A stretch of 64,000 bases of DNA from Parapedobacter sp. 2B3 (GCF_041925275.1 NZ_JBHEUZ010000014.1:1-64000); one strand, 5' to 3'; counted from the stretch's first letter, positions 3,237 through 57,170 are shown. The notes: generated by a model not told the origin, from the sequence alone. Numbers and translations are program-made.

Positions 3237-3239
3237 TCT

Positions 3240-5129: not shown

Positions 5130-5194
5130 GTGATGAAGTTATTCAATTCGATGGCCAAAGGTACGTAATAATTGTTCGTGGATGGAAAAAGGTA

Positions 5195-5232
5195 CAAAAA
5201 AAGACAGCCGGTTGACTGTCTTCTTTTTTATT
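5195..5232 (-). terminator. Intrinsic terminator downstream of the cupredoxin gene (stem agacag/ctgtct flanked by A- and T-runs, potentially bidirectional)
   Basis: aaaaaaagacagccggttgactgtcttctttttt read in sequence. Confidence 0.5.
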
Positions 5233-5248
5233 GCGTATGTCGTGCCTG

Positions 5249-20798: not shown

Positions 20799-20909
20799 TG
20801 TCGTAAATGGTGTTAATCCTAAACATCGTGAAAAATAACGTGCAAAAGGCACAGGGTGCCGTGAACGGAGCTTTCCAGCCCGGCTCATTGGCTGCGATGG
20901 TTGGATGTA

Positions 20910-21362: not shown

Positions 21363-21383
21363 GGTAGGGGCAAAGATACGTAA

Positions 21384-21420
21384 AAACCCCGCAGTTTTCA
21401 ATATAGTTGCGGGGTTTGTA
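21384..21420 (-). terminator. Intrinsic terminator after the flotillin gene (ccccgca...tgcgggg + TTTTTA on minus strand)
   Basis: aaaaaccccgcagttttcaatatagttgcggggtttgt on + strand; the U-tract follows on the minus strand. Confidence 0.5.
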
Positions 21421-30504: not shown

Positions 30505-32052
30505 CTATTGCAACACCAAAGGTTTCACATGACGTCCCTGGTCAGTTCCACGGATTCGTTGGAATTCTGTTACTAATTTCTTCAACGTGTCTTGTTGTTG
30601 CTTGGCAACATTCCGTTGCTGTCCCGGATCACTTTTGATATCAAACAGCTGGTATTCAGTATTGTTACCGAGTTCAATGTTTACCTGTTTGTTGATGGCG
30701 GGGCCATCATAAGGGGGAATCATTACCCAGTTACCGTGGCGTAATGCTGTCCGCGCCGATGCTTCGAGGATCAGTGAGGTTCTGCCCGCATTGCTTCTGC
30801 CTAACAACACATCCATATAGTCCTCGCTGTCACCGGTGCTTACGGTTGATCCCGTCAATTTGCCGAATGAAGCCAACAGATCAACCTGGCAAACCAACGC
30901 ATCGGAAACTTTCGGGCTGACGGTACCTTTCCAATAAACGATAAACGGAATACGGACACCTCCTTCATACAGACTGTATTTGCCGCCCCGGAAAGGACCG
31001 CTTGGTGTATGGTTCCCGAGTTTCTCCACCGCTTCATCTTGATAGCCATCGTTTACAACCGGTCCGTTATCACTGGTGAAAACGATGAGTGTATGTTCCA
31101 GCAGGTTTTCGTCGTCCAACAATTCCAGGAGTTGCCCCACGCACCAGTCTGCTTCCGCAATCGCGTCGCCACGGCTTCCCAGTCCGGTGGTGCCGGCAAA
31201 ACGTGGGTGGGGCGTGCGGGGGACATGTGGCTGCTGCATGGCGTAATAGAGAAAGAACGGTTTTTCTTTGTGCTCGGTAATGTATGCCCTCGCTTTCGCT
31301 AAAAATGTGTCAGCCATCTCTTCATCTTTCCAATGGGCGGCCGTTCCGCCTTTCATAAACCCGATGCGGGGAATGCCATTTACGATGCTGTTGTTGTGCC
31401 CATGATGCCATTTCAATTTCAGCAATTCCGGATGGTCAAGTCCGGTCGGCTCCCCTTCAAAATTCGTTTCGTAACTCACAAAAATGGGATCCTTGGGGTC
31501 CAGGCCTACGGTGCTGCCATCCTCGATATATACCGTGGGCACCCGGTCCTGTGTGGCCGCCATAATGAATGAATAATCGAAGCCGACTTCATTGGGTCCG
31601 GGTGTGATCCGTTCATTCCAATTCGCATTCCCGGCTCCCAAACCTAAATGCCATTTGCCTACCACCCCGGTATGATAACCGGCTTCTTTCAGCATTTTCG
31701 GCAGGGTCAGTTGGGCCGTATCAATCAGCAAAGGGGCGGTACCCGGCAGGATGCGTGCGTTTTCATTGCGCCAGGGATATACGCCCGTCAATAGGGCAAA
31801 CCGACTGGGCGTACAGGTGGCCGAAGTGGCATATCCGTTGGTAAACCGCACACCTCCCTCGGCCAGCCTATCGATGTTGGGCGTTTGCAGGGCCGTTGCG
31901 CCGTACGCTCCGATATCTCCGTAACCCAGGTCGTCCATGTTGATGACGATGATGTTCGGATGCGTCGCAGTTGCTTCCTGCTGCGCTCCGCCGTTGACCT
32001 GGCATCCGGTTGCAAATCCAATCAAAAAAAAGCCATATAAGATACGTTTCAT
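30505..32052 (-). CDS. Sulfatase (Cys-type, formylglycine-dependent)
   Basis: Signal/lipobox 'ATGC'; 'NMDDLGYGD'; 'CTPSRFALLTG' C-x-P-x-R motif. Confidence 0.85.
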   Translation of the reverse strand: MKRILYGFFLIGFATGCQVNGGAQQEATATHPNIIVINMDDLGYGDIGAYGATALQTPNIDRLAEGGVRFTNGYATSATCTPSRFALLTGVYPWRNENARILPGTAPLLIDTAQLTLPKMLKEAGYHTGVVGKWHLGLGAGNANWNERITPGPNEVGFDYSFIMAATQDRVPTVYIEDGSTVGLDPKDPIFVSYETNFEGEPTGLDHPELLKLKWHHGHNNSIVNGIPRIGFMKGGTAAHWKDEEMADTFLAKARAYITEHKEKPFFLYYAMQQPHVPRTPHPRFAGTTGLGSRGDAIAEADWCVGQLLELLDDENLLEHTLIVFTSDNGPVVNDGYQDEAVEKLGNHTPSGPFRGGKYSLYEGGVRIPFIVYWKGTVSPKVSDALVCQVDLLASFGKLTGSTVSTGDSEDYMDVLLGRSNAGRTSLILEASARTALRHGNWVMIPPYDGPAINKQVNIELGNNTEYQLFDIKSDPGQQRNVAKQQQDTLKKLVTEFQRIRGTDQGRHVKPLVLQ

Positions 32053-32054
32053 GT

Positions 32055-32096
32055 CGGTTATATTATATTGTTAATCGGTTATATTATATTGTTAAT
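32055..32096. repeat. Perfect 21-bp tandem direct repeat (tcggttatattatattgttaa x2) immediately upstream of the sulfatase start codon
   Basis: Read directly in sequence. Confidence 0.65.
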
Positions 32097-32115
32097 AAGA
32101 ATAATAAAGTGATCA

Positions 32116-33762
32116 TCAATCGATTTCCAATGCGCCCAAACTTGGTATATTGTCAGTCATTTTTCCTTCAATATCTTCTGTACTACGCAATCCCTGCATC
32201 AAGCCGATGGCATCGCTTTGGAGATAGGGGACTTTGACTCCCTTGCCTTTGACCAGTTTCGTGTTACGTGGCAGGTAGTCTGCCGGCAGCAAACCGCCTT
32301 TGGAAGTGAAATCCGGATCGCCGAATAACGGCGACTGATCTTGTATCGGTAAATCTGACGGCCAATTCCCGGATTTCAGATAGAGGTTGTTGCGGAAAAA
32401 GACACGGTTCAAGCCTCCTTCAAGCGGCGTGTCCGGCTTGTTCTGATCGCCCAATACGGTGAGGGAGGGGCCTTCAATGCAAAAAATATTGTTGGCGATC
32501 AACACGCCATCTGACCTGCCGTCTATCGCAAATTTGGTTTCGATGTCTTGACCCACATAAATCGTGTTGTTGTAGAAATAGGTGTTTACGGGGCCTTTTC
32601 GCTCCGTATTATTCCCCTGGTATCCGCTGAGCCAAAACAGTTTACCCTCCTGAAATGCGCCATTTACTCCCTTTACGCGATGGCCATCGTTGACGCTGAT
32701 GTTATAGCGGTAGGCGCAATTGTATGTATTACCCAATATTTCGCAAAATCCACCCGCATTGTGCGCACTGAAGTTATATTGGAGGACAACGTTATCGCAA
32801 TTGTAGTCGATGTGCGCTCCTGCAGAATCTCCGGGACCGTTGGCATACATGAACCGGTTCTTTTCGATAAGCACATTAGAAGCACTCCATGTCCACAAGC
32901 CGCTGCCGCGTCCCCATTTCCGGCTGTCATCCGCGCTGCCGGAGTAGGTGATTTCGTTGGTAGCCACATGGACAAACTTGACGTTCGACATTTGGATACC
33001 TGGCCCTCCTGTGCGGGTGATGTGGTTCGCATACAGCCAAACCCGGCTGATGTTATGTCTTCCCCTTGCACCGGTTAATTTTATGCCGGTATGCTCGATG
33101 TTTTCAATACGGCATGCCTCAATGCGGATGTTTTCTATCTTCGATGTTTCGTTGGTGCTCATCAGCCGGATTCCCCAACCATACGGCTCGCTCCCGTTGG
33201 CTGTCGTCACCTCGCTGGAAGGGCGTTTATAGCCGGGATTTTCGTGGAAAATATCCTGAATTCGGATGTTGGCCAAGACGATGCCTTCCGTGCGGCCGTT
33301 GGCCGTGGCGGTTACTAATATGCCGCAGCGCATTTCCGATCCCGGTTTCTTTTGGATATATCCATTCGCCTGGATGCGTAAGGAGTCGATATGGACATAT
33401 TGGCAATCGCGGACGAGCAGTGCCTGCGCGTGCCCCTTGGCATCAATAAGCGCCGGTTGATTGGTGTCATCCCCGGGCCAGGCCACGGACGTTATCGTAA
33501 TCGGGCGGTTTGGATGTCCTTGAAGGCCCACCAGTGACAATGAACCGGTATGGCGCTGGCCAGCGGCCAGCAATAAGCGATCACCGGGCGATAAAACCAA
33601 TTGGGATGCCCTTTCCAATGATCGGATAGCCTGGGCAGTGGATAATCCACTGTTGGCATCATTTCCTGCTACGGGATGTACGAAGTAATCGGTTGCACGG
33701 GCAAGGAAAGTCGCCGGTACCAAAAACAGCAGCGTCAAAAAAATACGGGTGTGAGTCATCAT
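32116..33762 (-). CDS. Secreted right-handed parallel beta-helix repeat protein (pectate-lyase-like fold; candidate polysaccharide lyase or glycosidase)
   Basis: 548 aa; signal peptide; repeated short N/G-rich PbH1-like segments ('NNIFCIEG', 'NVVLQYNFSAHNAGG', 'NVLIEKNRFMYANG'). Confidence 0.55.
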   Translation of the reverse strand: MMTHTRIFLTLLFLVPATFLARATDYFVHPVAGNDANSGLSTAQAIRSLERASQLVLSPGDRLLLAAGQRHTGSLSLVGLQGHPNRPITITSVAWPGDDTNQPALIDAKGHAQALLVRDCQYVHIDSLRIQANGYIQKKPGSEMRCGILVTATANGRTEGIVLANIRIQDIFHENPGYKRPSSEVTTANGSEPYGWGIRLMSTNETSKIENIRIEACRIENIEHTGIKLTGARGRHNISRVWLYANHITRTGGPGIQMSNVKFVHVATNEITYSGSADDSRKWGRGSGLWTWSASNVLIEKNRFMYANGPGDSAGAHIDYNCDNVVLQYNFSAHNAGGFCEILGNTYNCAYRYNISVNDGHRVKGVNGAFQEGKLFWLSGYQGNNTERKGPVNTYFYNNTIYVGQDIETKFAIDGRSDGVLIANNIFCIEGPSLTVLGDQNKPDTPLEGGLNRVFFRNNLYLKSGNWPSDLPIQDQSPLFGDPDFTSKGGLLPADYLPRNTKLVKGKGVKVPYLQSDAIGLMQGLRSTEDIEGKMTDNIPSLGALEID

Positions 33763-33874
33763 GCGTCAATGTTATGTTGGACGCCCAAAAGTAATGTGTA
33801 CCCATATCCAAGAGGGGGAAGGACAGACCAACATGAGGGGCAGGTGGTTCAAAATCGTTATTCACCACAGGAAA

Positions 33875-36800
33875 TTAAAGGTCAACCGTTGTTTTGTGCT
33901 GTTTAAGGTAGGCCGATGGGGTAAGTCCGAACTGCTGCTGGAAACTCCTGCGGAAATGTTTCAGGTCGTTAAAGCCGGTCTCGTAAGCGGCTTGCGTAAT
34001 ATTGAATTTTCCCGATTTCAGCAATACAGCACTCCGCTTCAAGCGGATCAGTTTGATGAATTCAGAACCGGATAAACCTGTAATGGTTTTTAATTTCCTG
34101 TAAAATGTGGATCGGCTCATATTCGCTATTTCCGCCAACACATCGGTGTTGAAATCCGGTGTAGCCAAGTGTTCCTCGGTATAGGAAACGATCCGCTTAA
34201 TGAAATCTGATTCAAATGTACCGAGATCGGTCTGGTCCTGATCCAGGTTGATGTGGCGGGCGAACTGATCCCGCAACTGTTGCCGGAGTGCTATTAAATT
34301 CTTTACATAAGATTTGAGAACCTGGGGGTTGAATGGTTTTGTCAGGTATACATCCGCGCCTTTGCTGATACCTTCAACGTATGCCTCGTCATCCGGCCGG
34401 GCGGTAAGTAATATGATGGGGATATGGGACGTTCGTTGATCATCCCTTAATTGTTGGCATAGGCTGAACCCGTCCCGCGATGGCATCATGATATCGCTGA
34501 TAACCAGGTCGGGAATGGTACTGAACGCCATTTCCAGACCATGCTGGCCGTCAGTAGCCTGAATGACGTTATAAAACGCACCAATAATGGAAGCCATATA
34601 ATCCCTGATTTCGGAATTGTCTTCCACGATTAAGACCAGGGGAAGGTCTTTTGTCAGCGTGTCGGCTTTTCGGCCGTTTTTTTTGCTATTTGTGTTGCTT
34701 GCAGCAGTGGCATCAACCGGATTATCTGCCGAAAACAAGATGTCCGCCCCTGCAGCGGGCAGGCTTATGTTGAACGTGCTGCCTGCACCCGGCAAGCTAT
34801 CGACGGTTATTCGGCCCCCGTGCATGCCCACCAACTCGCGGACAAACGCCAGTCCAATGCCCGTACCTGCCGTTTTATTGGGATGTCCTTTTTCGGCTTG
34901 ATAAAAGCGCTCGAATATCCTTTGGTGATCTTCCTCCCGGATACCGCTGCCGCTATCCGCCACACCGATCTCGCAAGAGGCATCATCTGTCGTTGCATTT
35001 GCCAGGCTTGCTGACAAGGTGATACGGCCACCGTCAGGCGTAAACTTAAACGCGTTGGAAAGCAGGTTGTACAGTACAATTTCGATTTTTTCCTTATCGA
35101 ATGAAAAGTATAGCTGCGTGGGGCAGTCCACTGAAAAACGGATATTCCTGCGTTCGGCTTCATCGGCAAATGAGTCAGCGACATACTTAGCGATTGACGT
35201 CAGGTCATGCGTGTTGACGTGGAGCGCAAGGCTACTGGCTTCCGCTTTCTGGAAGGCCAGCAATTGGTTCACGAGATGCAGCAGGCGCCTGGTATGGTTC
35301 AGCACGCGGCTTAGCGTGCCCCTCGTCCCGCCATCCAATTGGGATGCCGCTGACAGTTCGGACAGCGGCCCCATCATGAGTGTCAATGGTGTGCGGAATT
35401 CATGCGACACGTTAGTAAATAGCTTTGACCGTACCTGCGCAACTTCATGCTCCCGTTGGTAATTTAAGTTTGCGATTTCAAGTTTGTTGCGCAGTTTGAT
35501 CCTGCTGATACCGATATGGCGGGACAACCAAAGAAACGCAATCAGCAACGCTACATAAATGCTATAAGCCCACCAAGTCTTCCAGGGTGGAGGTAAGATC
35601 CGGATCGCTATGGACGTGCCTTCTTCGTTCCATACCTTGTCGCTGTTTGAAGCCATCACCGTGAACCGGTAATTGCCCGGCGGTAAATTGGTGTAGGTGA
35701 CCTGCCGTTGGTCACCGGCATATACCCAATCTTGGTCAAATCCCGATAACTTATAAGCATACTGATTTTTATCCGGTGCATGGTAGTCCAACGCTGCAAA
35801 CATAAGGGCTACAATGTTTTGTTTATAAGATAACGTAATGGTACGGGTGGCGAAGGGGGCATTGGATAACACTACGCGGCCAGCGATGGTATCGCCCACA
35901 GTGACATCTTCATTGTTCACGGCAAGGCCTGTAATGTATACTTGGGGAACTCGTTTGTTCATTGTAATGCTATCCGGGAAGAAAGACGTAATGCCCTTGA
36001 TGCTGCCGAAGTATAGTTCTCCCCGGCTGGAAATGAAGGAGCTGTTTTCGGAAAAGACATTGCTGATTAGACCATCCCTGGTATCGAAATGCTGGAATTC
36101 GCCTTTTTTTGTATCGTATTTGACGATGCCGTTATTTGTACTCATCCAGATGTTGCCGTGCCTGTCCGGCCGTATGGCATGAACGTAATCATTCGGGAAT
36201 CCATTTTGGGCAAAGTGATTCTCAAAGGTGTATTTGCCGGATTCATCTTCAATTAATTTATTGAAACCGTGTTGCGTGCCGATCCAAATACCCCCGCTTT
36301 GGTCTTCTGTGATGCACAGGACGGTATTGTTAGTCAGGCAGGCAGGCAGGTTGTTTTGCTGGCGGTAAACGATGAATCGGTCGCGGTCGTGGTCATAAAG
36401 GTGTAAGCCGTTGTAGGTGCCCATCCATAATCGTCCCTTCGAGTCAGACAGCATACAGCTTATGCGCTCGTTCTGTAGTGCGCCGTCTTTTCCGGGCTGG
36501 GCAGAATACCGCCTGAAGCGGGGTCTGCCACTATCGGTGAAGCCGATCACTTTGTTGAGCCCCGACTCCTGTGTACCCACCCAGACGGTGCCCCGCCGGT
36601 CGCGGGTTATTGAATTTATTTTCGGTCCGCTCAGGCTTTCCGGATCTCCCCTGTCGGATGTTACCGTGCGTTGGTTTCCCCCATAACGTTTGCCTTTGAT
36701 AATGACGATTCCCCGATTGGTATACATCCATAAGTCCCCGCCATATTCGAAAAAACCCCGCACCGAATTGACACCCGCAGGAGTGGGTATTTTCCTCAAG

Positions 36801-37978
36801 CCGCCCTGGCTGGTGAATAAATACGCCCCGCTTGCCCTCGTGCCGACCCAAAGTCCTTCCTCGTTCATGAATATGGATTGTACGTAGGTATCTATGGTGG
36901 AGAAATCGGTGTGGAACGCAAATTCGATATTATTGAACCGCTTTCTGCCGGGATCAATTTTATAAATGCCACCGCCATCTGTGCCGATCCAAAGAATGCC
37001 AGACCTGTCCTGCATAATGGATAATACGATGCAACGCTGGGATGCCCCATCATCCTCGGAATCGAGACGATAGCGTTGCAGGGTTTGCCCTTCGATGTTG
37101 AGGCGGTGGAGTCCGCCACCCCAGGTTCCGATCCAAACGTTGCGTGCCGCATCGATGAACACCCGGTAGGCGTTATTATTGCTTAATGAATATTCATTTC
37201 CGGGTTCATGCCGGTATTGCCTTACAATGCGGCCCGTTGCTGGGTCGAGCACCAGTACACCCATTTTCCATGTCCCTAAATAAAGTAACCCCGACACCGG
37301 ATCCCGCGCGATGGAGGTGACCTGTGCGGAGCTTCCTAAATCCCAGACAACTTGTTTGAATTTCCCATTGGAGAACTCGTAGGAAAAAAGCCCCAGGTCT
37401 GTACCCACCCAAAGGCCATCACCATACGACAACAAAGACAATACGTTGCGTTTTCTTGTTACCGGGCTATAGGTATCTGTGGCGGGTTCATAACGGAATA
37501 ACCCGCTGGATGCGCCGATATAGAGATAGCCATCGGTTTCATGCAGGGCCTGTATATTTTGGATGTTGATCTGCAGGCTATCCGGCGGTATTTGGTGGTA
37601 TATGGTATTGTGTGATAAGTCGTAGCGGTTTAACCCCGTCGTTTTGGTGCCGACCCAAAGATTGCCGTTTTCGCCCTCATGGATTACCTCAACGTATTGG
37701 CTGGTAAAATTGTTGCCCGATTTGGGATGATTCCGGATGAGTTTGAACGCATAACCATCGTACCGGTTGAGCCCGCCGCGCGTGCCCAGCCATAAAAAAC
37801 CATATCGGTCTTGGCACAGTGAGGTAACTTCATTATTCACCAACCCTTGCTCGATAGCGAGCGATGAAACCAGTTCGCTTTGGGCATAAACAAACCCCCA
37901 TATGCCCATCGAAGCCAGCAACAGCTTGACAATACGAGCAATCGATAGGGCGATGGTATACCACGATCTAAGATTCAT
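33875..37978 (-). CDS. Hybrid two-component system regulator (HTCS): periplasmic beta-propeller/Y_Y_Y sensor, TM, HisKA, HATPase, REC, AraC-type HTH
   Basis: 1367 aa; many 'WIGT..GL' propeller repeats; 'FTNVSHEFRTPLTL' H-box; 'DSGSGI...GTGIGLAFVREL'; 'LVLIVEDNSEIR' REC; C-terminal AraC helix-turn-helix. Confidence 0.9.
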   Translation of the reverse strand: MNLRSWYTIALSIARIVKLLLASMGIWGFVYAQSELVSSLAIEQGLVNNEVTSLCQDRYGFLWLGTRGGLNRYDGYAFKLIRNHPKSGNNFTSQYVEVIHEGENGNLWVGTKTTGLNRYDLSHNTIYHQIPPDSLQINIQNIQALHETDGYLYIGASSGLFRYEPATDTYSPVTRKRNVLSLLSYGDGLWVGTDLGLFSYEFSNGKFKQVVWDLGSSAQVTSIARDPVSGLLYLGTWKMGVLVLDPATGRIVRQYRHEPGNEYSLSNNNAYRVFIDAARNVWIGTWGGGLHRLNIEGQTLQRYRLDSEDDGASQRCIVLSIMQDRSGILWIGTDGGGIYKIDPGRKRFNNIEFAFHTDFSTIDTYVQSIFMNEEGLWVGTRASGAYLFTSQGGLRKIPTPAGVNSVRGFFEYGGDLWMYTNRGIVIIKGKRYGGNQRTVTSDRGDPESLSGPKINSITRDRRGTVWVGTQESGLNKVIGFTDSGRPRFRRYSAQPGKDGALQNERISCMLSDSKGRLWMGTYNGLHLYDHDRDRFIVYRQQNNLPACLTNNTVLCITEDQSGGIWIGTQHGFNKLIEDESGKYTFENHFAQNGFPNDYVHAIRPDRHGNIWMSTNNGIVKYDTKKGEFQHFDTRDGLISNVFSENSSFISSRGELYFGSIKGITSFFPDSITMNKRVPQVYITGLAVNNEDVTVGDTIAGRVVLSNAPFATRTITLSYKQNIVALMFAALDYHAPDKNQYAYKLSGFDQDWVYAGDQRQVTYTNLPPGNYRFTVMASNSDKVWNEEGTSIAIRILPPPWKTWWAYSIYVALLIAFLWLSRHIGISRIKLRNKLEIANLNYQREHEVAQVRSKLFTNVSHEFRTPLTLMMGPLSELSAASQLDGGTRGTLSRVLNHTRRLLHLVNQLLAFQKAEASSLALHVNTHDLTSIAKYVADSFADEAERRNIRFSVDCPTQLYFSFDKEKIEIVLYNLLSNAFKFTPDGGRITLSASLANATTDDASCEIGVADSGSGIREEDHQRIFERFYQAEKGHPNKTAGTGIGLAFVRELVGMHGGRITVDSLPGAGSTFNISLPAAGADILFSADNPVDATAASNTNSKKNGRKADTLTKDLPLVLIVEDNSEIRDYMASIIGAFYNVIQATDGQHGLEMAFSTIPDLVISDIMMPSRDGFSLCQQLRDDQRTSHIPIILLTARPDDEAYVEGISKGADVYLTKPFNPQVLKSYVKNLIALRQQLRDQFARHINLDQDQTDLGTFESDFIKRIVSYTEEHLATPDFNTDVLAEIANMSRSTFYRKLKTITGLSGSEFIKLIRLKRSAVLLKSGKFNITQAAYETGFNDLKHFRRSFQQQFGLTPSAYLKQHKTTVDL

Positions 37979-38292
37979 AATTTGGTCGTTTTGATGGGCT
38001 AATTTATCATATATAAATCAGAAAGATGAATAATCCTACGATGATTGCGTAAATAACCCATTCTGTAATCGTTATCCGTTTCATGCCCAAAGGTAAGTCG
38101 TCTTCAACGAACCCTTGGGGGTCTGGCGCTCACAAATGGGGAGGCTCGTTTCAGTTTTTGCCCTTAACCGCCGTTGTAGGATGACCAAACGATTGACCTA
38201 TTCCACCCGCATTTTGAAAGAATCTGCCCTATGCTCGTTGTCTGGGTGCCGTAATTTTGATCCGTACCAATTTGTAAACTAAATTCAATAAA

Positions 38293-40326: not shown

Positions 40327-40352
40327 AACCATCGCTATCCTAATTCTTTATC

Positions 40353-45754: not shown

Positions 45755-45846
45755 TTATAGTGACATGCTAAATAGACTACTTCTTTTCTTTTGTTTGATA
45801 ACGTTCGCATTTTCTTACACGAAACAGAACGTAAAATCCCCCTATT

Positions 45847-47334: not shown

Positions 47335-47424
47335 AAGAACGATTTACAATACACGATATAACATCTAACATAAGTGTTATATCAATTTATAGTTTTGATA
47401 TACCCTAACAATTACTTTGCGATC

Positions 47425-49077: not shown

Positions 49078-49094
49078 GGTAGGTTTGCTATGCA

Positions 49095-50864
49095 TCAGTG
49101 ATCTGCGAAGTAATCCCTGATTACATGCCAGGCTTTCTTTTTTTCGCCATGTTCGGACAGTAATCCCTTCCGGTTCCACCCGTTCTGATAGCTGCTGTGC
49201 ATGCGGGTGGGGCTTCGGAAGTCGGCAAGTACCCAGGGACATACACCACGTAGCTGCGGATTCGAACGGAACATCCGGATGTTGTCTTCCATCACTTTCG
49301 CTTGGTATTCCTCTGTCCATGAACTGGCCGTATCGGCTGTACCGTGATTGCCATACACGGCCTCGGCGCCAAACTCGGAAATGATGAGCGGTTTTTTGTA
49401 AGTCGTTTCCCATTGTATATTTCCGGGCCCGGCAGGCCACGGGGTATACCAACCCATGTATTTATTTGCGGCCAGGATGTCGAGGTCTTCACTCAGCGGG
49501 TCGTCAATGATGATCTTATTACCTGAATACTTGAATTGATCAAAGGCAGAAGCGATTAAACGCGTTGGATCCAGCGTTCTCGAAAAGGAAGCCAGTGCGC
49601 GCAGCACGCGATTCCGATCGGGTGTTGGCCGAGTTTCGTTGGATAGGCTCCAGATGATAACGCCACACCTGTTCTTATCGCGCGAAATCATGTCCTTAAG
49701 CATGGTTTGTGCTTTTTCTGTAATTTCGGAGCTGGTGAAGTCGACCCCTTGCCATATGGGAATCTCCTCCCAAAGCATAAATCCCATTTCCTCTGCTTTA
49801 CGGATTAGGAATTCGTGCTGTGGATAGTGTGATGTACGGATGAAATTGCACCCCAGTTCGCGGGCTTGCAGCAGCAGTTGCATAGCATCGGCTTCCGAAG
49901 CAACCCGGCTTTTGCGTTGAGGAATCTCTTCATGGATACTGATCCCTTTCAGGAATATCGGTTCGCCGTTCAACAGCAACTCATCGCCCGCTACGTCAAT
50001 ATTTCGGAATCCTATCTTTTCACTGATTTGATCATGATCCGAGTTGATTTCTACGTGGTATAGTTTCGGATTCGAAGGTGACCAACGTTCCACTGCCGTA
50101 TGGAATGCGAAAGACACGTAACCATCTGCCGCTGCCATGAAGGTGTGCTTGATGCCGGCATCCGGTATGGAAATGGTGATGGGTTCACTACCCGTAACGC
50201 CATTGAGTTGAAGCCATCCCGCTATCGTGTCTTTACTCCCTTTTTTTAATTGGATGAAATAATCGGCGATATAGCTTGCGGGGGTTGTAATTAGGTTGAC
50301 ATCACGGGTGATACCACCATAGTTCCACCAGTCGAAGTTTAAGGCCGGTATGCCATTGGCCGACCTGCGGTTATCCACTTTGACGATCAGTTTGTTTTTC
50401 CCCGGGTGGAGCTGATCCGTTATTTCAAACTGAAAGGGCGTAAACCCACCTTCATGGGTACCCAGCAAGCTACCGTTGAGGTATACTTTGGCGGCATAGT
50501 TTACGGCACCGAAATGGATAAATTGCCGTTGACCGGGCTCGGGAGCCACTTCAAATTCTTTTTTATACCAGATCACGCCTTCGTAGTATTCCAGGTTGGG
50601 CCGCTGCGAGTTCCAATCGGCGGGGATGTTCAGGGTGGCATCACCAAAACTATATTCATTGAAACTGTTTTTGTTTTTTGGCGGTTCATCCAAGTGAATC
50701 CGCCGCTGCTCACCGCGGTCATACCAATCAACGATGGCTTGCCATTTGCCATTCAGGCTCATGGCATTCCGGCCGGCGACATTGGTCATACAGGGTCGTG
50801 TGTCAGCGTAGCCTTTGGGAGCGATGGTCAGTGCGAGGCACGTAGCAAGAAATAAACGGATCAT
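49095..50864 (-). CDS. Glycoside hydrolase family 2 protein (beta-glucuronidase/beta-mannosidase-like)
   Basis: 589 aa; signal; 'AKVYLNGSLLGTHEGGFTPFQFEIT' resembles the GH2 sugar-binding-domain motif; TIM-barrel 'IIWSLSNE'. Confidence 0.7.
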   Translation of the reverse strand: MIRLFLATCLALTIAPKGYADTRPCMTNVAGRNAMSLNGKWQAIVDWYDRGEQRRIHLDEPPKNKNSFNEYSFGDATLNIPADWNSQRPNLEYYEGVIWYKKEFEVAPEPGQRQFIHFGAVNYAAKVYLNGSLLGTHEGGFTPFQFEITDQLHPGKNKLIVKVDNRRSANGIPALNFDWWNYGGITRDVNLITTPASYIADYFIQLKKGSKDTIAGWLQLNGVTGSEPITISIPDAGIKHTFMAAADGYVSFAFHTAVERWSPSNPKLYHVEINSDHDQISEKIGFRNIDVAGDELLLNGEPIFLKGISIHEEIPQRKSRVASEADAMQLLLQARELGCNFIRTSHYPQHEFLIRKAEEMGFMLWEEIPIWQGVDFTSSEITEKAQTMLKDMISRDKNRCGVIIWSLSNETRPTPDRNRVLRALASFSRTLDPTRLIASAFDQFKYSGNKIIIDDPLSEDLDILAANKYMGWYTPWPAGPGNIQWETTYKKPLIISEFGAEAVYGNHGTADTASSWTEEYQAKVMEDNIRMFRSNPQLRGVCPWVLADFRSPTRMHSSYQNGWNRKGLLSEHGEKKKAWHVIRDYFADH

Positions 50865-52279
50865 TTTTTTACGTTATTCAAATCGATGGGCAATGGTACG
50901 AAGTCCTGGTAGCGTATCATCCACTTGTTCAGTGCCGCCAGAAGCTGTTGTTGCTGGCTGGCTAATTCGTTGTTGCCGTATAGATTATTTAGTTCATAAG
51001 GGTCTTTTTCCAGATCGAATAGCTCAAACATGGGACGGGGTCGCGCGAAAATTAATCGACGGAAGGACGCGTCCAACGCCCCGTCGTTGTTTAGGGCTAC
51101 AAGTTCTCTCCAAAAGGCTTGGCCGTTCATGTCGGTCGGCGTATAGGAAAGGGTAGGCAGCACATTATAAATCAATTTATAACGTTTCCCCATAACGCTG
51201 CGCGAAAGGTCAAATGCGTTTGTCGAAGTCGGCAGCATGTCAGCATGAGCACCCCGTTGCGCAAAGATATAATCAGTTGCCGCGTAGTCGCCGCCGTGTA
51301 ACAGTTCCTTAAAGCTGCGGCCCGACATTTGCTTGTCGGGTGGCACGCCTGCTATCGTAAGTACCGTAGGCGCGAGGTCTTCACCGGACAGCAAGGCATC
51401 GCTTACTGTTCCCTGCTTGATGCCCTTGTCCCAACGCAAGATGAGCGGTACACGTAGGCCGGCTTGGTAAAGTGTACCTTTGCCCCTCAGCAGGGCTGCA
51501 CCGTTATCGCCCATGAAGATGATCAACGTGTTTTCCATGAGTCCGCGGTCTCGGAGTTCGTTGAGGAGGAGTCCTACCTGTTCGTCCAGTTGTTGGATTT
51601 CTCCGTAGTAGGCCGCAAGATCCTTTCGCAGGTTCTCGGTGTCCGGATAGTCGGGTGGGAGGACTAGGCTACCCGGTGCGGGTAAAAATTCGGCAGGTGC
51701 CGTGTATGGACGATGCGGGTTGCTGTAGTTGACCCACAGAAAGAAGGGCTTGCTATCCGGTACGCTTTCGAGAAATGACCGCATCACGTTGAGGTTTTCT
51801 TCGTCGGGGCCGGTTTGAAGGAAATCGACCCGTCGATGGAAGGTCCGCAGTTGAAACTCGTCAAAGACCGCTGCCGCTTCGGGCGATTGCCGGCCGGAAC
51901 CGTCTAGGTGATAACTCCTGCCCTGGATGCCGGTATAATATCCTGCAGACCGGAGTAGCTCTGGAAACGTTACGATATCCGCCGGCAACGGTGCGGAAAA
52001 CCGGGTCATCCGGATGTCAACGGCATTCCTGCCGGTCATTAGCGTAGCCCGGGAAGGCACGCATTGCGGCGAGCCGGTATACATTTGTGTGAACCGCACA
52101 CCGTGGTGGGCAATCGCATCGATGTTCGGCGTATGGATGTTTGGGTCGCCGTAGCAGCTTAGGTGCGGTGCACTATGGTCATCACTCAGTATAAACAGGA
52201 TGTTGGGGTGTTGCCCGTTTTGGCAGAAAGAAAGCCCGGGCAACACCACCAACAGCATCGCTAAAAGGTGTGGTTTCAT
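50861..52279 (-). CDS. Sulfatase (Cys-type)
   Basis: 'NILFILSDDH', 'CVPSRATLMTGR'; start ATG at 52279 immediately abuts the SusD stop. Confidence 0.85.
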   Translation of the reverse strand: MKPHLLAMLLVVLPGLSFCQNGQHPNILFILSDDHSAPHLSCYGDPNIHTPNIDAIAHHGVRFTQMYTGSPQCVPSRATLMTGRNAVDIRMTRFSAPLPADIVTFPELLRSAGYYTGIQGRSYHLDGSGRQSPEAAAVFDEFQLRTFHRRVDFLQTGPDEENLNVMRSFLESVPDSKPFFLWVNYSNPHRPYTAPAEFLPAPGSLVLPPDYPDTENLRKDLAAYYGEIQQLDEQVGLLLNELRDRGLMENTLIIFMGDNGAALLRGKGTLYQAGLRVPLILRWDKGIKQGTVSDALLSGEDLAPTVLTIAGVPPDKQMSGRSFKELLHGGDYAATDYIFAQRGAHADMLPTSTNAFDLSRSVMGKRYKLIYNVLPTLSYTPTDMNGQAFWRELVALNNDGALDASFRRLIFARPRPMFELFDLEKDPYELNNLYGNNELASQQQQLLAALNKWMIRYQDFVPLPIDLNNVKK

Positions 52280-52280
52280 G

Positions 52281-53840
52281 CTATTTCCAGGCATCGTGTT
52301 GTATCAACGCCTTGTTGGCATCCAGTTCGCTGAGCGGAATAGGAAACGTTTCCGAGCGCTTGTTTTGGTATCGCGGATTGTAACCATTCAGGTTGTCGGC
52401 GACCATGCGTTCGTAAGCCTCGCTTACTATTCCCCAGCGTATCAGGTCGAAGAACCGCAGCCCTTCAAAAGCGAATTCCACGCGGCGTTCGTGCCGTATG
52501 ATGTCCCGTAGTTGCGGTTGTGACAGCCCCGTGCCCTCTGCTTCCTGTACGGTGGGCATACCTACTCCTGGCCGTTGCCGTACCTGGTTGATGAGCGAAT
52601 ACACCTCGTCACCGATCTGGTTATCTTCGATCAGCGCTTCTGCCCGCATAAGCAACACGTCTGCATAACGCAATATGTAAAAATCCTGGCCCCCGTTTCC
52701 AGCAGGGCCAATGCCCGCATCCGATGTCCTCGTGCGTATGTATTTTTTTAGGCCATAACCGGTTACATTATTGCCATTAAAGGCGTTTCCTACATCAGTA
52801 ATATAGATATCACCTTTAAACCATACGCTCGCGAGCAGCCTCGGATCCCGATTTTCTTTTGGATTACTGGGATTGTACAGATCGGAAACCGTAATTGGCT
52901 TGCCATCCGTACAATAAAAATCAGCCACGAGATTGGGCAGGGGCTGTTTATCGACCTTTGGCTGTCCAACATAGGTAGACGAGAACGTTTCGTTGGCTGA
53001 GAAGCCCGGGGTTTCTACGAATCGTACGGAGAAAACCACATCTTTGGAATTTTCTCCGTCTTCCGTAAATTGCACATCGTAGGGCAGACTCAAATCATAT
53101 TGCCCAAGCGCAATGACATCTTGCGCCGCGGCGGCGGCTTTTTTCCAATCCTGATCGAGAAGGTACACTCGGGCAAGCAAGCCGTATGCAGCACCTTTGG
53201 TGGCGTGTCCGTACCTATCCGCGGATTGTGTGGTCGGAAGAAGGTCGGCAGCTTGTTGAAGATCAGCGATGATTTGGTCTAGCACCTGCCGTTTGGGTGT
53301 TTTTGCCACCTGTGCTGTTTCCAGTGTTTGGGGTTCAGTGATTAGCGGCACGTCTTCATAATAGGTAACGAGATTTAAATAGAATAAAGCCCTTAAAAAA
53401 AGCGATTGTCCCATGAAGTTGTCCTTTGCTGCCGTGCTGATCTGGTCTTCGGTCATCTTGGGGAGGTTTGTGATTGCTTGGTTACTTCTCACAATGCCCC
53501 GGTAATTGGCCAGCCAGAAATTCTCGAACATCCCAGTTGTTGAGGCAGACACGTTTCCCTCCACGTAATTCCCCGGGCCTTCATATTTCCATAAGTTAAA
53601 GGAATTGTCGGTAAAACTGTCGTACATCGGGATGCCGGCATCGCCGTTGAGGTTGCCGCTGTAAAGCTGACGCGTTTGCAGTACGTCGTAAATGCCATTT
53701 ATTGCAAGCAAAGCATCCTTTTCATTTTGCCAGAAGTTGTCGGCGGCCAACTGGGTCAGCGAGTGTCGGTCCAAAAAGCCTTCCGAACATCCTATAAACG
53801 TTAAGGGGAGGGCAATGATGATTGTTAATATTCTTTTCAT
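52281..53840 (-). CDS. RagB/SusD-family nutrient-binding outer membrane lipoprotein
   Basis: 519 aa; lipobox 'FIGCSE'; TPR-like helical SusD architecture; located immediately downstream of SusC. Confidence 0.85.
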   Translation of the reverse strand: MKRILTIIIALPLTFIGCSEGFLDRHSLTQLAADNFWQNEKDALLAINGIYDVLQTRQLYSGNLNGDAGIPMYDSFTDNSFNLWKYEGPGNYVEGNVSASTTGMFENFWLANYRGIVRSNQAITNLPKMTEDQISTAAKDNFMGQSLFLRALFYLNLVTYYEDVPLITEPQTLETAQVAKTPKRQVLDQIIADLQQAADLLPTTQSADRYGHATKGAAYGLLARVYLLDQDWKKAAAAAQDVIALGQYDLSLPYDVQFTEDGENSKDVVFSVRFVETPGFSANETFSSTYVGQPKVDKQPLPNLVADFYCTDGKPITVSDLYNPSNPKENRDPRLLASVWFKGDIYITDVGNAFNGNNVTGYGLKKYIRTRTSDAGIGPAGNGGQDFYILRYADVLLMRAEALIEDNQIGDEVYSLINQVRQRPGVGMPTVQEAEGTGLSQPQLRDIIRHERRVEFAFEGLRFFDLIRWGIVSEAYERMVADNLNGYNPRYQNKRSETFPIPLSELDANKALIQHDAWK

Positions 53841-53859
53841 GATGGTGTTTTCTTTTTAT

Positions 53860-56800
53860 TTAGAAACTTACGTTAAGGCCACCCGTAATTACCTGATATA
53901 ATGGGACACTCCGTGCGTTGGTATTGCCGGCAGCACGTTCGGGGTCGAAATTTTTCATTTTGGTAAACGTCAGCATATTCTGGCCGGAGATAAAAAGCCT
54001 AATGCCGCTCACCTGGATTTTTTGCAACAGTGTGCGCGGCAATGTGTAGCCGAGTTCGATGTTTTTGAGGCGGAGGTAAGAGGCGTCTTCGACATAGAAT
54101 GTAGACAACACATGGTTGTTAGCCCCTCCCATACGCGGCAGCGAAGTGCTTGGGTTTTCAGGAGTCCAGCGCGACGTCCAATGGCTAAGCGAATTACTTC
54201 GTTCGTCATTTAATGGCTGTTGGCCATTTCCAATCAGGATGCGGTCCACATCCGCAATACCCTGTAATAAGATACCAAGGTCAATACCTTTATAGTTAAA
54301 ATTGGCGTTGAGACCAAATAGCCAAAGCGGGTACGGATTGCCGATTACAGTTCGATCGAACGCATCGATAATGCCATCGGGTTCTCCCGCAGGTCCACTT
54401 AAGTCGGCATAGCGGATGTCGCCGGCGGCTGTCCGTGGACTACCGAACTGAATAGGTGCCGCGGCTACTTCTTCGGCCGTTTGAAATATCCCTTCCATCA
54501 CATAGCCATAGTAAGCTTGAAAGGGATCTCCAGCACGCGTGATGGTGTTGCCATCAATGGTTTGAACTCCGGAGCCTAAGCTTGTTACGTTGTTTTTGGC
54601 AAAGCGTGTCATGTTGAGTCCGACGGCATAGTTAAATTCCCCATTTCTTTCGGTATAATTCAAGTTCAATTCAACGCCTTTATTAACCATTTCCGCAGCA
54701 TTCTGAGCCGCCAGGCTGTTGACGCCCAGCGTGCCGGGAATTGGGAAATTGGTGTAGAGGATATCGTAGCTCCGACGATTGAAGTAGTCCGCTTCCAGGG
54801 TTAGCCGGTTATTAAGCAAAGCGAGGTCCAGCCCGATGTTGTATTGCTCGGTGGTTTCCCACAGGATAGTCGGGTTTGCGAGGCTCGTCAAGGCAACGCC
54901 ACCGACAACAACACCGTCACCAAGTACGTAGTCAAGTCCTGCGTTATACGTTTGGTCGTATATGTAATTATCGATACCGTTATTGCCGGTACGTCCCCAG
55001 CTTCCGCGCAGTTTCAGGTCCGATAACACGGACGAAGACATGTTTTTGATAAAAGGCTCTTCGGATATCCGCCAGCCTGCGGAAAACGAGGGGAATGTAC
55101 CGTACCGATTGCCGGGACCAAATTTAGAGGATCCGTCACGCCGTATGTTGGCCTCGAACAAATACCTTTCAAGATAATCGTAATTTACCCGTCCGAAAAA
55201 GGATTGCATGCTTTGTTCGCTCGCACCCCCGGCTACAGTGGGGTTAGCAACCCCGCCGGCGTTAAATTCATGCAGGTTGTCGGAAGGGAAACTTTGCAGT
55301 GAGCCGTTGAAGTTATCATTCCGGTCATAGATGACTGAATGGCCCGCAAGGATTTGCAGCCGGTGATCCGAAAGGGCAGCCTGATAGCGTAAAAGATTTT
55401 CGCTCATCACCCGGTAGTGCTTGTTAAAGCTGTTTGATAACGAGTTGAGGTCGTTTGCACTGATGAGATTGCCATCGTAGTCTCTCCGTTCCGTGGTCGG
55501 GCGGAAGCTGGAATCGTCAAAAAAGTTCAGATTAAGTGTTGCTGCGCTTTCAAAGCTGAACCCTTTAAAGGTTGCTTTCATGCTAAGGCGATCATTGATG
55601 TTATAGTCGTGTGAAACGAAATCACCCAATTCACCGATTTGCATAGGCTGAAACTCGGTTCCTAATGACGGGTTGACGTTTCGCCACGCCCCATCAACAA
55701 ACCCATAGCCGCCGTGAGAATAATAGGCTGGAATGGTAGGTGGGTTCCTACGGAAGGAATAAATCATGTTATTCACCACCCCTGATCCACCCGACGGCCC
55801 GACGAACTTATTCAATGTTCCATTAAGATTATTACTAATGCTAAGCCAGTCTTTTAAGTCCGACTGGACGTTTGCTCGGAAGTTGTACCGCTTCGACCTG
55901 AATTTACCTATCACGATTGCGCCTTGGTCTAGATAGCCCAACGAAATCCTGTAAAGGGTGTTCTCGTTGCCTCCCGACAAGGAAAGGTAGTGATTCTGGA
56001 TGGGCGCGTCTTGCATTATTTCTGCCGCCCAGTCCGTATTTGCAAATTGATCTGGATTGGAGCCGTCCCGGATTTGCTGCAACTGCCCTTCCGTATAGCG
56101 GGGGTTGAAGGGCCTTCCATCAGCCTCATTTTCGTACTTCTCGTTCATCAATTCCGCATACGCTATCGCATTTAAAAAGGTAGGCATTATTGTAGGCCGC
56201 TGGAAGCCCACGTAGTTGTTGTATTCCACCTTGAATTTGGAGGCCTGTCCCTGTTTGGTTGTGATCACGATTACCCCGTTAGCTCCACGTGCGCCGTAGA
56301 TTGCCCCCGCAGACGCATCTTTAAGGACGGTAATCGTTTCGATGTCGGCAGGAGCCAACCTGTTGAACTCGGCAAGCCCAGTAAATTGCATTCCGTCGAT
56401 CACAACCAATGGCACTGAATTTCCGAATGTCCCCAGCCCGCGGATATTGATGGTTGAGCCATCAGTTCCAGGAAGTCCATTTCCCTGCGTGAGCTGGACC
56501 CCTGAAAAGCGACCATACATCAATTGGGCAGAGTTACTCACCGGTGTGTTAACCACACTATCCAGTTGGAGCGTTTGGACGGCACCCGTGAGGTTTACCT
56601 TTTTTTGCGTACCATAGCCGACTACTACAATTTCGTCCAATTCCGTTTTGGAAGCAGCTAGGGAGACTGTTAGATTTGCCGGACCATCGATGGCCACATC
56701 TTTTGATTGGTAACCAACGAAAGAAAAACGCAAGGTGCTTTGACCGCCCTTGACCGCCAAAGTGAAAGTGCCTTGGTCATCGGTTAGCATTGCATTTCCG

Positions 56801-56967
56801 GTCCCGATTTCTGTGACACTTACCCCTGCGAGGGGAGAATTGTCAGAGGCGTCGATAACCCTTCCCCTAACCGTCACCTGTGAGTAGGCTGCGCTTGTAA
56901 ATAGCAGAAGTTGCAATAGTAGAAATAGATTACATAACTTCGTTATTGAAAATATAAATATACGCAT
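53860..56967 (-). CDS. SusC/RagA-family TonB-linked outer membrane transporter
   Basis: Signal 'MRIFIFSITKLCNLFLLLQLLLFTSAAYSQ'; CarbopepD-reg 'VRGRVIDASDNSPLAGVSV'; plug 'VVVGYGTQKK'; C-terminal 'GLNVSF'. Confidence 0.9.
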   Translation of the reverse strand: MRIFIFSITKLCNLFLLLQLLLFTSAAYSQVTVRGRVIDASDNSPLAGVSVTEIGTGNAMLTDDQGTFTLAVKGGQSTLRFSFVGYQSKDVAIDGPANLTVSLAASKTELDEIVVVGYGTQKKVNLTGAVQTLQLDSVVNTPVSNSAQLMYGRFSGVQLTQGNGLPGTDGSTINIRGLGTFGNSVPLVVIDGMQFTGLAEFNRLAPADIETITVLKDASAGAIYGARGANGVIVITTKQGQASKFKVEYNNYVGFQRPTIMPTFLNAIAYAELMNEKYENEADGRPFNPRYTEGQLQQIRDGSNPDQFANTDWAAEIMQDAPIQNHYLSLSGGNENTLYRISLGYLDQGAIVIGKFRSKRYNFRANVQSDLKDWLSISNNLNGTLNKFVGPSGGSGVVNNMIYSFRRNPPTIPAYYSHGGYGFVDGAWRNVNPSLGTEFQPMQIGELGDFVSHDYNINDRLSMKATFKGFSFESAATLNLNFFDDSSFRPTTERRDYDGNLISANDLNSLSNSFNKHYRVMSENLLRYQAALSDHRLQILAGHSVIYDRNDNFNGSLQSFPSDNLHEFNAGGVANPTVAGGASEQSMQSFFGRVNYDYLERYLFEANIRRDGSSKFGPGNRYGTFPSFSAGWRISEEPFIKNMSSSVLSDLKLRGSWGRTGNNGIDNYIYDQTYNAGLDYVLGDGVVVGGVALTSLANPTILWETTEQYNIGLDLALLNNRLTLEADYFNRRSYDILYTNFPIPGTLGVNSLAAQNAAEMVNKGVELNLNYTERNGEFNYAVGLNMTRFAKNNVTSLGSGVQTIDGNTITRAGDPFQAYYGYVMEGIFQTAEEVAAAPIQFGSPRTAAGDIRYADLSGPAGEPDGIIDAFDRTVIGNPYPLWLFGLNANFNYKGIDLGILLQGIADVDRILIGNGQQPLNDERSNSLSHWTSRWTPENPSTSLPRMGGANNHVLSTFYVEDASYLRLKNIELGYTLPRTLLQKIQVSGIRLFISGQNMLTFTKMKNFDPERAAGNTNARSVPLYQVITGGLNVSF

Positions 56968-57170
56968 AAGTATATAGATTAATTGGTTATTATATGTGGA
57001 CAAAGGTAGGAATCGACGTAAAATCGAGAGGGGACAAGGAAGTCAATTATAGGGGACGTCGATTCAAATCGATCCGTATGAATGCGATGTGCGCATAAAA
57101 GCTAATAGGAAAGGACCTCAGCATAATTTAAGAGGTGCCTTTCTATCCGTTAAAGAGTAAAGTAGCGGAA

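Follow-up and report, generated by a model that had tools for sequence, protein, structure and literature searches.

A sulfatase-rich polysaccharide utilization locus of Parapedobacter sp. 2B3 and the conserved core with a GH136-like beta-helix protein on which it is built

Which glycan does a bacterium of a soil genus harvest with four sulfatase genes, two GH2 enzymes and a beta-helix protein? The question is raised by a locus at 30505-57003 in a 64,000-nucleotide stretch of DNA from Parapedobacter sp. 2B3 (GCF_041925275.1 NZ_JBHEUZ010000014.1:1-64000; the whole stretch is called the window). Twelve long, tightly packed open reading frames (ORFs) fill this interval in the ORF listing, and they form a real 26-kb polysaccharide utilization locus (PUL) of Parapedobacter. 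With moderate confidence, the locus can be read as a functional Bacteroidota PUL built on a conserved core, with a galactan sulfated on O-4 and O-6 as its most likely target; in this lineage, beta-linked uronic acid and additional sulfate esters are probably part of the glycan as well. A 4-O/6-O-sulfated galactan is favored because the relatives of the sulfatases act on galactose (Gal) or N-acetylgalactosamine (GalNAc) 4- and 6-sulfates, because one of the GH2 enzymes is a predicted beta-galactosidase, and because related loci are tied to the Leloir pathway. Parapedobacter, a genus of the Sphingobacteriaceae, lives in soil and compost, and a marine-algal substrate therefore cannot be assumed. 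The genes are, from left to right:

30505..32052, minus strand: sulf1, S1_15-type sulfatase (Pfam Sulfatase 4e-59; motif CTPSR)
32116..33762, minus strand: predicted beta-helix glycosidase, signature gene of the conserved core (Pfam Beta_helix 6.7e-7)
33875..37978, minus strand: hybrid two-component system (HTCS) sensor/regulator with the full architecture (Reg_prop, Y_Y_Y, HisKA, HATPase_c, Response_reg, HTH_18)
38293..40326, plus strand: GH128-like clan GH-A hydrolase (Pfam Glyco_hydro_cc, PF11790, 2e-44)
40353..43274, plus strand: sulf2x, fused double sulfatase of 973 aa (two Pfam Sulfatase stretches; CSPSR in the N-domain, CGPSR in the C-domain)
43271..45754, plus strand: GH2a, predicted beta-galactosidase (GH2 N, TIM, DUF4982 and C5 domains)
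45847..47334, plus strand: sulf3, accessory S1 sulfatase (Pfam Sulfatase 4e-54; CTPYR)
47425..49077, plus strand: secreted PF12831 (FAD_oxidored) protein, accessory (Pfam 1e-110; listed as an ORF from GTG 47374)
49095..50864, minus strand: GH2b (sugar-binding, Ig-like and TIM-barrel GH2 domains by Pfam)
50861..52294, minus strand: sulf4, S1_8-like sulfatase (Pfam Sulfatase 8e-55; CVPSR)
52281..53840, minus strand: SusD-like surface glycan-binding lipoprotein (SusD_RagB and SusD-like_3 by Pfam)
53860..57003, minus strand: SusC-like TonB-dependent transporter (CarbopepD_reg_2 and Plug by Pfam), which may start at 56967

These genes fall into three apparent transcription units: susC-susD-sulf4-GH2b on the minus strand (57003 to 49095), GH128-like-sulf2x-GH2a-sulf3-flavoprotein on the plus strand (38293 to 49077), and HTCS-beta-helix-sulf1 on the minus strand (37978 to 30505). 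The HTCS gene is divergent from the GH128-like operon, and a 4-bp overlap joins the start of GH2a to the stop of sulf2x. susC (53860-57003) lies directly upstream of susD (52281-53840) on a shared strand, and the pair is accompanied by four glycosidase-type genes, four sulfatase genes and the HTCS gene between housekeeping flanks. The borders are sharp, with an acyltransferase, an ABC ATPase and trpD/F/B/A on the left (upstream) and an M20 peptidase on the right (downstream), and G+C is about 50%. Scans for sigma-70 promoters and terminators found no enrichment relative to shuffles, as is expected in Bacteroidota, and Rfam gave no match in the window.

Domains were assigned by a Pfam scan of the long ORFs of the window (at least 150 aa); shorter ORFs, ORFs nested in longer ones and the interval 2705-3722 lay outside it. 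The scan recovered every family named in the original prediction, which had been made from the nucleotide sequence alone, and confirmed its inventory gene for gene, including five Cys-type sulfatase domains in four genes: all five PF00884 domains carry C-x-P-x-R, in the form C-[TSGV]-P-[SY]-R, some 50 residues from the domain start. Pfam also agreed with it that the locus contains no PL8, PL12 or GH88 domain. The further statement that the window encodes no sulfatase-maturing enzyme held for the ORFs of at least 150 aa, none of which matched Radical_SAM or FGE-sulfatase; a PUL without its own maturase gene is ordinary.

The extent of the conserved core was read from related genomes. A scan of GTDB, with one genome per species, returned 80 loci with beta-helix homologs, whose ORFs were called and compared with the proteins of the window. 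Genomic context was drawn from close homologs, exact matches to the GH128-like protein or the 2B3 flavoprotein being absent from the contig index; single loci are cited by number (L001 and so on). Fifty species-level loci had 8 kb or more on either side of the beta-helix homolog, and in these the following were found:

SusC and SusD orthologs (at least 45% identity): 36 of 50 loci
S1_19-like sulfatase adjoining the beta-helix gene (about 60% identical to the fused enzyme's C-domain): 30 of 50, plus 11 weaker
HTCS (at least 30%): 30 of 50
S1_15 ortholog (about 64%): 29 of 50
GH128-like protein (at least 30%): 28 of 50
GH2a (at least 40%): 3 of 50
sulf4 (at least 40%): 1 of 50
PF12831 protein (at least 40%): 1 of 50
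GH2b (at least 40%): none of 50
sulf3 (at least 40%): none of 50

By these comparisons, beta-helix homologs mark a conserved core that comprises the HTCS, SusC/D, an S1_19-like sulfatase, the beta-helix protein, an S1_15 sulfatase and often the GH128-like enzyme. Orthologs of SusC and SusD in this core share 52-58% and 47-58% identity, respectively, with the proteins of the window. The core occurs in Cytophagales, Flavobacteriales, Chitinophagales, Marinilabiliales and Sphingobacteriales. Its minimal form, found in Algoriphagus, consists of six genes (HTCS-SusC-SusD-S1_19-beta-helix-S1_15), to which the loci of Rudanella lutea and Jejuia pallidilutea add a GH128-like gene; many related loci belong to freshwater or soil taxa (Rudanella, Emticicia, Runella, Ginsengibacter). 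Only the genes of the core form a conserved unit. Four further genes, those for GH2b, the S1_8-like sulfatase, sulf3 and the flavoprotein, are accessory and, judged by their distribution, lineage-specific additions. Clustering of the neighboring genes identified recurrent companions of the core, namely a GH43-like protein (19 loci), a SASA-like esterase (14), a CBM4_9 protein (12) and a GH16 enzyme (8), both of the latter with type IX secretion system (T9SS) signals, and a major facilitator superfamily transporter (7). GDSL esterases also occur in related loci, the T9SS GH16 genes show a faint kappa-carrageenase likeness (39 bits against a cut-off of 350), and a small GH16 enzyme resembles 1,3-1,4-beta-glycanases.

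The neighbors also bear on the sugar that is released. galK-galT-galE lies directly beside the core in L015, L031, L066, L078 and L080, with a sodium:solute symporter (SSF) after galKTE in L066; L052 has galK, and L063 and L065 have galM. Because the core directly adjoins galK-galT-galE or galM in several genomes, its product is probably galactose. The loci with galactose genes span different families and habitats, so no other evidence at hand says as much about the product sugar as this recurring link.

The sulfatases point in the same direction. Their subfamily names were taken from the best matches among solved structures (PDB), which are strong for S1_15, S1_16 and S1_19 and weak for S1_8 (1e-51). 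The relatives of sulf1 are Gal/GalNAc-6-O-sulfatases: it matches 7ozc (1e-205), the GalNAc-6-O-sulfatase 6s20 (1e-169) and the lambda-carrageenan S1_15A/B enzymes 9bas/9bau (about 1e-148), and its orthologs, with about 63-66% identity, come after the beta-helix gene in many genomes. Its N-terminal signal ends in a Cys, so sulf1 is possibly a lipoprotein. In the double sulfatase, both domains have relatives that act on Gal/GalNAc-4-sulfate. The N-domain is S1_16-like (6ust, 1e-119; 9fo1, "k-carrageenan sulfatase S1_16", 7e-104), and the C-domain is S1_19-like (6prm, an exo-4S-kappa-carrageenan sulfatase, 2e-103; 9hh3, S1-19; 6b0k). Fusion of S1_16 and S1_19 was found only in Parapedobacter-type loci (L001, L002, L008); in other loci they are encoded by two genes, of about 480 and 545 aa. 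The PDB relatives of sulf3 are distant (2qzu, 1e-62; the chondroitin sulfate/dermatan sulfate endo-4-O-sulfatases 6s21/6j66, about 1e-53). The best match of sulf4, 9bb9 "S1_8A sulfatase", is weak (1e-51), and its orthologs are limited to Parapedobacter and Anseongella loci.

Among the glycosidases, which are retaining enzymes from families acting on beta-linked glycans, GH2a is by its matches a beta-galactosidase of the GalB type: it scores 935.9 bits against the NCBIfam GalB equivalog (cut-off 900), and its PDB matches include 5t98 (6e-226) and 9bey, the lambda-carrageenan "GH2 beta-galactosidase" (3e-216). GH2b is a predicted beta-hexuronidase, either a beta-glucuronidase or a beta-galacturonidase, with 6d8k, a gut beta-glucuronidase (6e-211), 6d1n (8e-168) and the beta-galacturonidase AqGalA, 7vqm (2e-155), as PDB matches and an N-x-K motif at 564-566, near the C-terminus. 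Thus, the original prediction of a sulfated beta-linked glycan as the substrate is supported by the enzymes of the locus.

The GH128-like protein has a signal peptide with Cys27 and a catalytic domain at about aa 145-364. Glyco_hydro_cc scores 152 bits (cut-off 21), and ten GH128 structure chains were matched, the best being 6uaq (5e-25). In clan GH-A, the acid/base Glu lies in NEP and the nucleophile Glu in TE; here, E204 (FNEPD) and E309 (WITEFN) are each kept in 95% or more of the 121 sequences aligned. The protein shares the domain and both glutamates with GH128 beta-1,3-glucanases (6uaq, 6uay), but differs from them in its long N- and C-terminal regions (145 and 312 aa, without a Pfam match even at E 0.1) and in its partners, which are sulfatases and galactose genes rather than those of laminarin utilization. 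The full-length architecture was found in three close homologs only.

The beta-helix protein is the signature of the core, and its own sequence, together with its AlphaFold2 (AF2) model, identifies it as a distant relative of GH136 with a putative catalytic pair, Asp312 and Asp319. A phmmer search of PDB matched the GH136 lacto-N-biosidase 6kqs (1e-11), and a profile of 31 homologs matched five GH136 chains (7v6m, 8e-25; 6kqs, 4e-23). In the model (pLDDT 81.8), the beta-helix fold starts near residue 25, where the signal peptide ends. The top six Foldseek matches of the model are all GH136 (2e-17 to 3e-13, TM about 0.55-0.65, about 18% identity), and the best of them has 2e-17 and a TM of 0.62. 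D312 and D319 are invariant in the 31 homologs. In HMMER they align with an Asp pair of the same 7-residue spacing in 7v6m and 6kqs (in the latter at chain positions 570 and 577); in GH136, this pair is catalytic (D411/D418 in LnbX, D568/D575 in ErLnb136). Three other assignments were rejected: structures of GH110 alpha-galactosidases and GH82 iota-carrageenases are both absent from the top 50 Foldseek matches, and matches to PL6 lyases (1e-7) are ten orders of magnitude weaker than those to GH136.

The protein thus has in common with the GH136 lacto-N-biosidases (LnbX of Bifidobacterium longum, ErLnb136, TnX, BsaX) a right-handed beta-helix, the profile match, the closest Foldseek matches and the aligned Asp pair. 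It is unlike them in its low identity and in having no LnbY-type partner or N-terminal helical domain, neither of which was seen in the protein, the window or the related loci. Moreover, its gene lies in a sulfatase PUL of environmental Bacteroidota that is tied to galactose catabolism, and not among genes for milk or mucin glycans. This genomic context, with its sulfatases and Leloir genes, argues for a substrate other than that of the lacto-N-biosidases. A search of the GH136 literature from 2021 on yielded no characterized Bacteroidota or sulfatase-linked GH136 among the matches listed, and a search for GH136 together with sulfatases, GH128, S1_19 or S1_15 yielded no characterized member outside the lacto-N-biosidases of gut Firmicutes and Bifidobacteria.

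A library of 1.84 billion sequences contains 366 representatives of the wider superfamily at E <= 1e-30. Within it, the orthologous group is unusually conserved (50-60% identity across orders), and the gene of the window has 95% identity to that of Parapedobacter indicus RK1. Three loci, L011 (Parapedobacter sp. SGR-10), L037 and L049, contain two beta-helix paralogs side by side and several extra sulfatases; the paralogs of L011 have 60% and 58% identity to the query.

Several observations weigh against a sulfated galactan. All core specificities are extrapolated from relatives at about 18-60% identity, and the cellular locations come from N-termini judged by eye. The relatives of S1_15, S1_16 and sulf3 also act on the GalNAc sulfates of chondroitin and mucin, GH2b implies a uronic acid that plain galactan lacks, and Leloir or mutarotase genes lie next to only about 6 of the 50 loci with full flanks, while this window has none. 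All characterized GH136 enzymes release Gal-beta-1,3-GlcNAc, that is, they cleave an N-acetylhexosamine (HexNAc) bond and not galactan, and all characterized GH128 enzymes are beta-1,3-glucanases; no natural sulfated galactan is known that soil or freshwater Bacteroidota could draw on. A different explanation is the lyase-free hydrolytic breakdown of a proteoglycan of the chondroitin/dermatan sulfate type. GalNAc 4S/6S sulfatases would clear the chain of sulfate, the GH136-like enzyme would free GlcA-beta-1,3-GalNAc by analogy with lacto-N-biose release, GH2b would split off glucuronate, and GH2a and the GH128-like enzyme would handle the Gal-beta-1,3-Gal-beta-1,4-Xyl linkage region. The matches of sulf1 to the chondroitin GalNAc-6-O-sulfatase 6s20 (1e-169), of sulf3 to the endo-4-O-sulfatases 6s21 and 6j66, which are among its nearest named relatives, and of the double sulfatase to the GalNAc-4-/-6-sulfatases 1fsu, 4fdi and 7stt fit this scheme, as does the kinship of GH2b to beta-glucuronidases; known GH136 enzymes hold HexNAc in subsite -1, and the Sphingobacteriaceae include classic glycosaminoglycan degraders. 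However, Pfam finds no PL8, PL6, GH88 or hexosaminidase domain in the locus, none of the 50 full-flank GTDB loci has GH2b, and it was galK/T/E/M, not genes of GalNAc or uronate catabolism, that were seen beside related loci. The locus shares SusC/D, HTCS and relatives of S1_15/S1_16 (7ozc, 1e-205; 6s20, 1e-169; 7oza) with the chondroitin sulfate PUL and mucin-desulfating sulfatases of Bacteroides thetaiotaomicron, but it differs from these systems in lacking PL8 and GH88, in its other glycosidases and in its habitat. Breakdown of chondroitin is unlikely.

Mucin O-glycans or keratan sulfate, as sulfated animal glycoconjugates with Gal-beta-1,3/4-HexNAc units bearing 6S or 4S, would suit the only characterized GH136 activity, the signature enzyme acting as a sulfated (neo)lacto- or galacto-N-biosidase. 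Several of the closest S1_15/S1_16 structures (7ozc, 7oze, 7p26 and 7oza) are from B. thetaiotaomicron, a mucin degrader of the gut, and GH2a resembles beta-galactosidases of the BgaA/BgaD type. No domain of GH20, GH84, GH29, GH95, GH33 or GH18 type was found in the locus by Pfam, however; the conserved partner is GH128-like, joined elsewhere by GH43-like and GH16 enzymes, and the host is a soil bacterium. Such a substrate is very improbable. Somewhat better placed, and still quite improbable, is a galactan of the carrageenan type, with the beta-helix protein in the role of an alpha-galactosidase. The best characterized relatives of the S1_19 and S1_16 domains are kappa-/iota-carrageenan 4-sulfatases, GH2a, sulf1 and sulf4 match enzymes of the lambda-carrageenan cascade (9bey, 9bas/9bau and 9bb9), and the T9SS GH16 enzymes of related loci have the faint kappa-carrageenase likeness mentioned above (39 bits against 350). 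Against this reading, no GH110 or GH82 structure is among the top 50 Foldseek matches of the beta-helix protein, and Pfam shows GH2 and Glyco_hydro_cc as the only GH domains, with no GH16, in a scan in which GH82, GH150, GH110, GH127, GH129 and GH167 were not directly covered; the soil genus of the host and the many related loci from freshwater and soil taxa also argue against carrageenan. The least probable of these explanations is a sulfated beta-1,3-glucan or a mixed microbial or microalgal exopolysaccharide, with the nearby galactose genes a coincidence. The activity of the characterized GH128 enzymes and the 1,3-1,4-beta-glycanase likeness of the small GH16 would agree with a glucan, and the SASA-like and GDSL esterases of related loci suggest an acetylated heteropolymer, but no beta-glucosidase (GH3, GH1, GH30) is present, the relatives of the sulfatases are Gal/GalNAc-specific, GH2a is a predicted beta-galactosidase and Leloir genes recur in unrelated taxa. 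Of the substrates listed in the original prediction, which included algal sulfated galactan, glucuronan, ulvan-like polymers and host mucin-type glycans, sulfated galactan gains from the Leloir and mutarotase genes at homologous loci and from the Gal-4S/Gal-6S-type relatives of the sulfatases; its algal source is not a given in a soil host.

If the substrate is a 4-O/6-O-sulfated galactan, the following order of steps and cellular locations can be proposed. The GH128-like enzyme, possibly a lipoprotein, would cut the polymer at the cell surface, and the fragments would be bound by SusD and imported by SusC. In the periplasm, desulfation by the S1_15, fused S1_16/S1_19, S1_8-like and sulf3 enzymes would alternate with exo-glycosidase steps. 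These would be carried out by GH2a as beta-galactosidase, by GH2b as beta-hexuronidase and by the beta-helix enzyme, whose part may be to release a mono- or disaccharide. The Parapedobacter additions would extend this scheme, GH2b taking off beta-linked uronic acid, and the S1_8-like, sulf3 and S1_16 enzymes removing further sulfate esters. An oligosaccharide intermediate would activate the HTCS and thereby switch on the three transcription units, while galactose would enter a Leloir pathway encoded elsewhere in the genome. The Cys-type sulfatases would be matured by an enzyme encoded outside the window, which is expected elsewhere in the genome.

Such an alternating cascade would resemble the cyclic exo-cascade for lambda-carrageenan, which, on the homology of its enzymes, is the closest mechanistic precedent, three of its enzyme types having clear homologs here. 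The lambda-carrageenan PUL of Pseudoalteromonas distincta U2A contains a GH2 exo-beta-galactosidase, S1_15 (6S) and S1_8 sulfatases and beta-helix glycosidases, and desulfation and exo-glycosidase steps alternate in its cascade to yield galactose (PMC12549532). GH2a, sulf1 and sulf4 match its enzymes 9bey (3e-216), 9bas/9bau (about 1e-148) and 9bb9 (1e-51), respectively. In contrast to that PUL, the locus of Parapedobacter has no carrageenan-type endo-hydrolase domain by Pfam, its beta-helix protein is GH136-like and its host belongs to the soil; it adds S1_16/S1_19 sulfatases of the 4S type, the GH128-like enzyme, the beta-hexuronidase and a Bacteroidota SusC/D and HTCS. An "enigmatic" PUL of Winogradskyella forsetii, with GH136-annotated CAZymes and sulfatases, for which its authors named no substrate (PMC9723794), is similar by description, being from a member of the Bacteroidota and combining GH136 with sulfatases; no Winogradskyella is among the 80 retrieved loci. 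That PUL is marine, whereas the locus described here adds two GH2 enzymes, extra sulfatases and the PF12831 protein.

Within Parapedobacter, the locus varies in content and in divergence. L001, a P. indicus-like metagenome contig, encodes a GH128-like protein that is 99% identical and shares the gene order, but it is without sulf3 and the PF12831 gene, so that GH2a and GH2b converge directly. The more distant L002 (81%) also lacks sulf3 and has a PF12831 gene and a Gfo/Idh/MocA oxidoreductase gene between GH2a and GH2b, as does L003. Because its contents differ (sulf3 and PF12831 here, none in L001, PF12831 and Gfo/Idh/MocA in L002/L003), the GH2a/GH2b junction (45755-49094) is, by comparison of these loci, a variable slot. 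When 28437-53616 was compared with L001 and L008, the block 30506-45750, from sulf1 to GH2a, had 93% nucleotide identity, the left flank 77.5% and the right part of the PUL 76-83% (GH2b 83%, sulf4/SusD 76%). This mosaic of identities, 93% against 76-83%, suggests that the 15-kb left block was recently exchanged between Parapedobacter lineages.

The flavoprotein in the variable slot most likely starts at ATG 47425 and has 550 aa, because a 100%-identical homolog, a Parapedobacter sp. 2B3 protein, starts there; the next relatives are from Parapedobacter, Olivibacter and Sphingobacterium. It has no sequence relative in PDB. Its AF2 model is poor (pLDDT 52), so the Foldseek matches are generic (FAD Rossmann folds, TM about 0.2) and no function is drawn from them; a literature search on PF12831 returned nothing relevant. 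The UniRef label "Xanthan lyase" on some homologs could not be substantiated; a published paper assigns the known xanthan lyases to PL8. The family is highly conserved, with 72-77% identity across genera of Sphingobacteriaceae and a mean column identity of 81%; there are several paralogs per genome, two of them in Parapedobacter sp. 2B3, and the homologs have a GGTSAA motif in place of the canonical GxGxxG.

The remainder of the window contains other features on the minus strand:

1316-5782, minus strand: two paralogous pyridine-nucleotide-disulfide oxidoreductases (462 and 468 aa) beside a plastocyanin/azurin-type cupredoxin (177 aa); the roughly 1 kb between the paralogs (2705-3722) has no ORF of at least 150 aa
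5920-11995, minus strand: genes for CheB methylesterase and CheR methyltransferase, enclosed by two hybrid histidine kinases (multiple receiver domains, GAF), forming a chemotaxis-like signalling module
12076-13302, 20910-21401 and 23097-23699, minus strand: ORFs of 408, 163 and 200 aa with no Pfam match at E <= 0.001
18240-20888, minus strand: TonB-dependent receptor (Plug, CarboxypepD_reg) with a weak N-terminal match to the heavy-metal-associated domain HMA (E 9e-4, below the Pfam cut-off)

Bacteroidota turn over complex glycans chiefly through PULs; for the majority of those predicted, no substrate is known. The locus of Parapedobacter sp. 2B3 is a lineage-specific expansion of a widespread, uncharacterized PUL type and offers a reasonable lead for the discovery of enzymes. 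Its SusC/D, HTCS, sulfatases and exo-glycosidases are of the usual kind; the novelty lies in the signature GH136-like enzyme, which has no characterized representative outside milk-oligosaccharide-degrading gut bacteria, and in a sulfated, probably galactose-based, substrate in non-marine hosts. Cultured hosts exist, namely Parapedobacter sp. 2B3, P. indicus RK1 (in which sulf3 and the flavoprotein are naturally missing), Rudanella lutea and several Algoriphagus species, and the predicted product, galactose, narrows the candidate substrates. Solving the system would not reveal a new kind of system, but it would likely give a new GH136 specificity and functions of S1_19/S1_15 beyond carrageenan and host glycans, and it would show which sulfated glycan soil and freshwater Bacteroidota harvest. 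A more specific proposal is tentative and somewhat doubtful: the GH136-like beta-helix protein may represent a new glycosidase specificity, such as an exo-galactosidase or galactobiosidase acting on a desulfated 4-O/6-O-sulfated galactan, and may define, with the S1_19-like and S1_15 sulfatases, the widespread system, to which Parapedobacter would add a uronic-acid branch and a role, possibly non-redox, for the PF12831 protein. If this were true, the occurrence of the core in soil and freshwater would imply an unrecognized pool of sulfated galactan-type glycans outside the sea.

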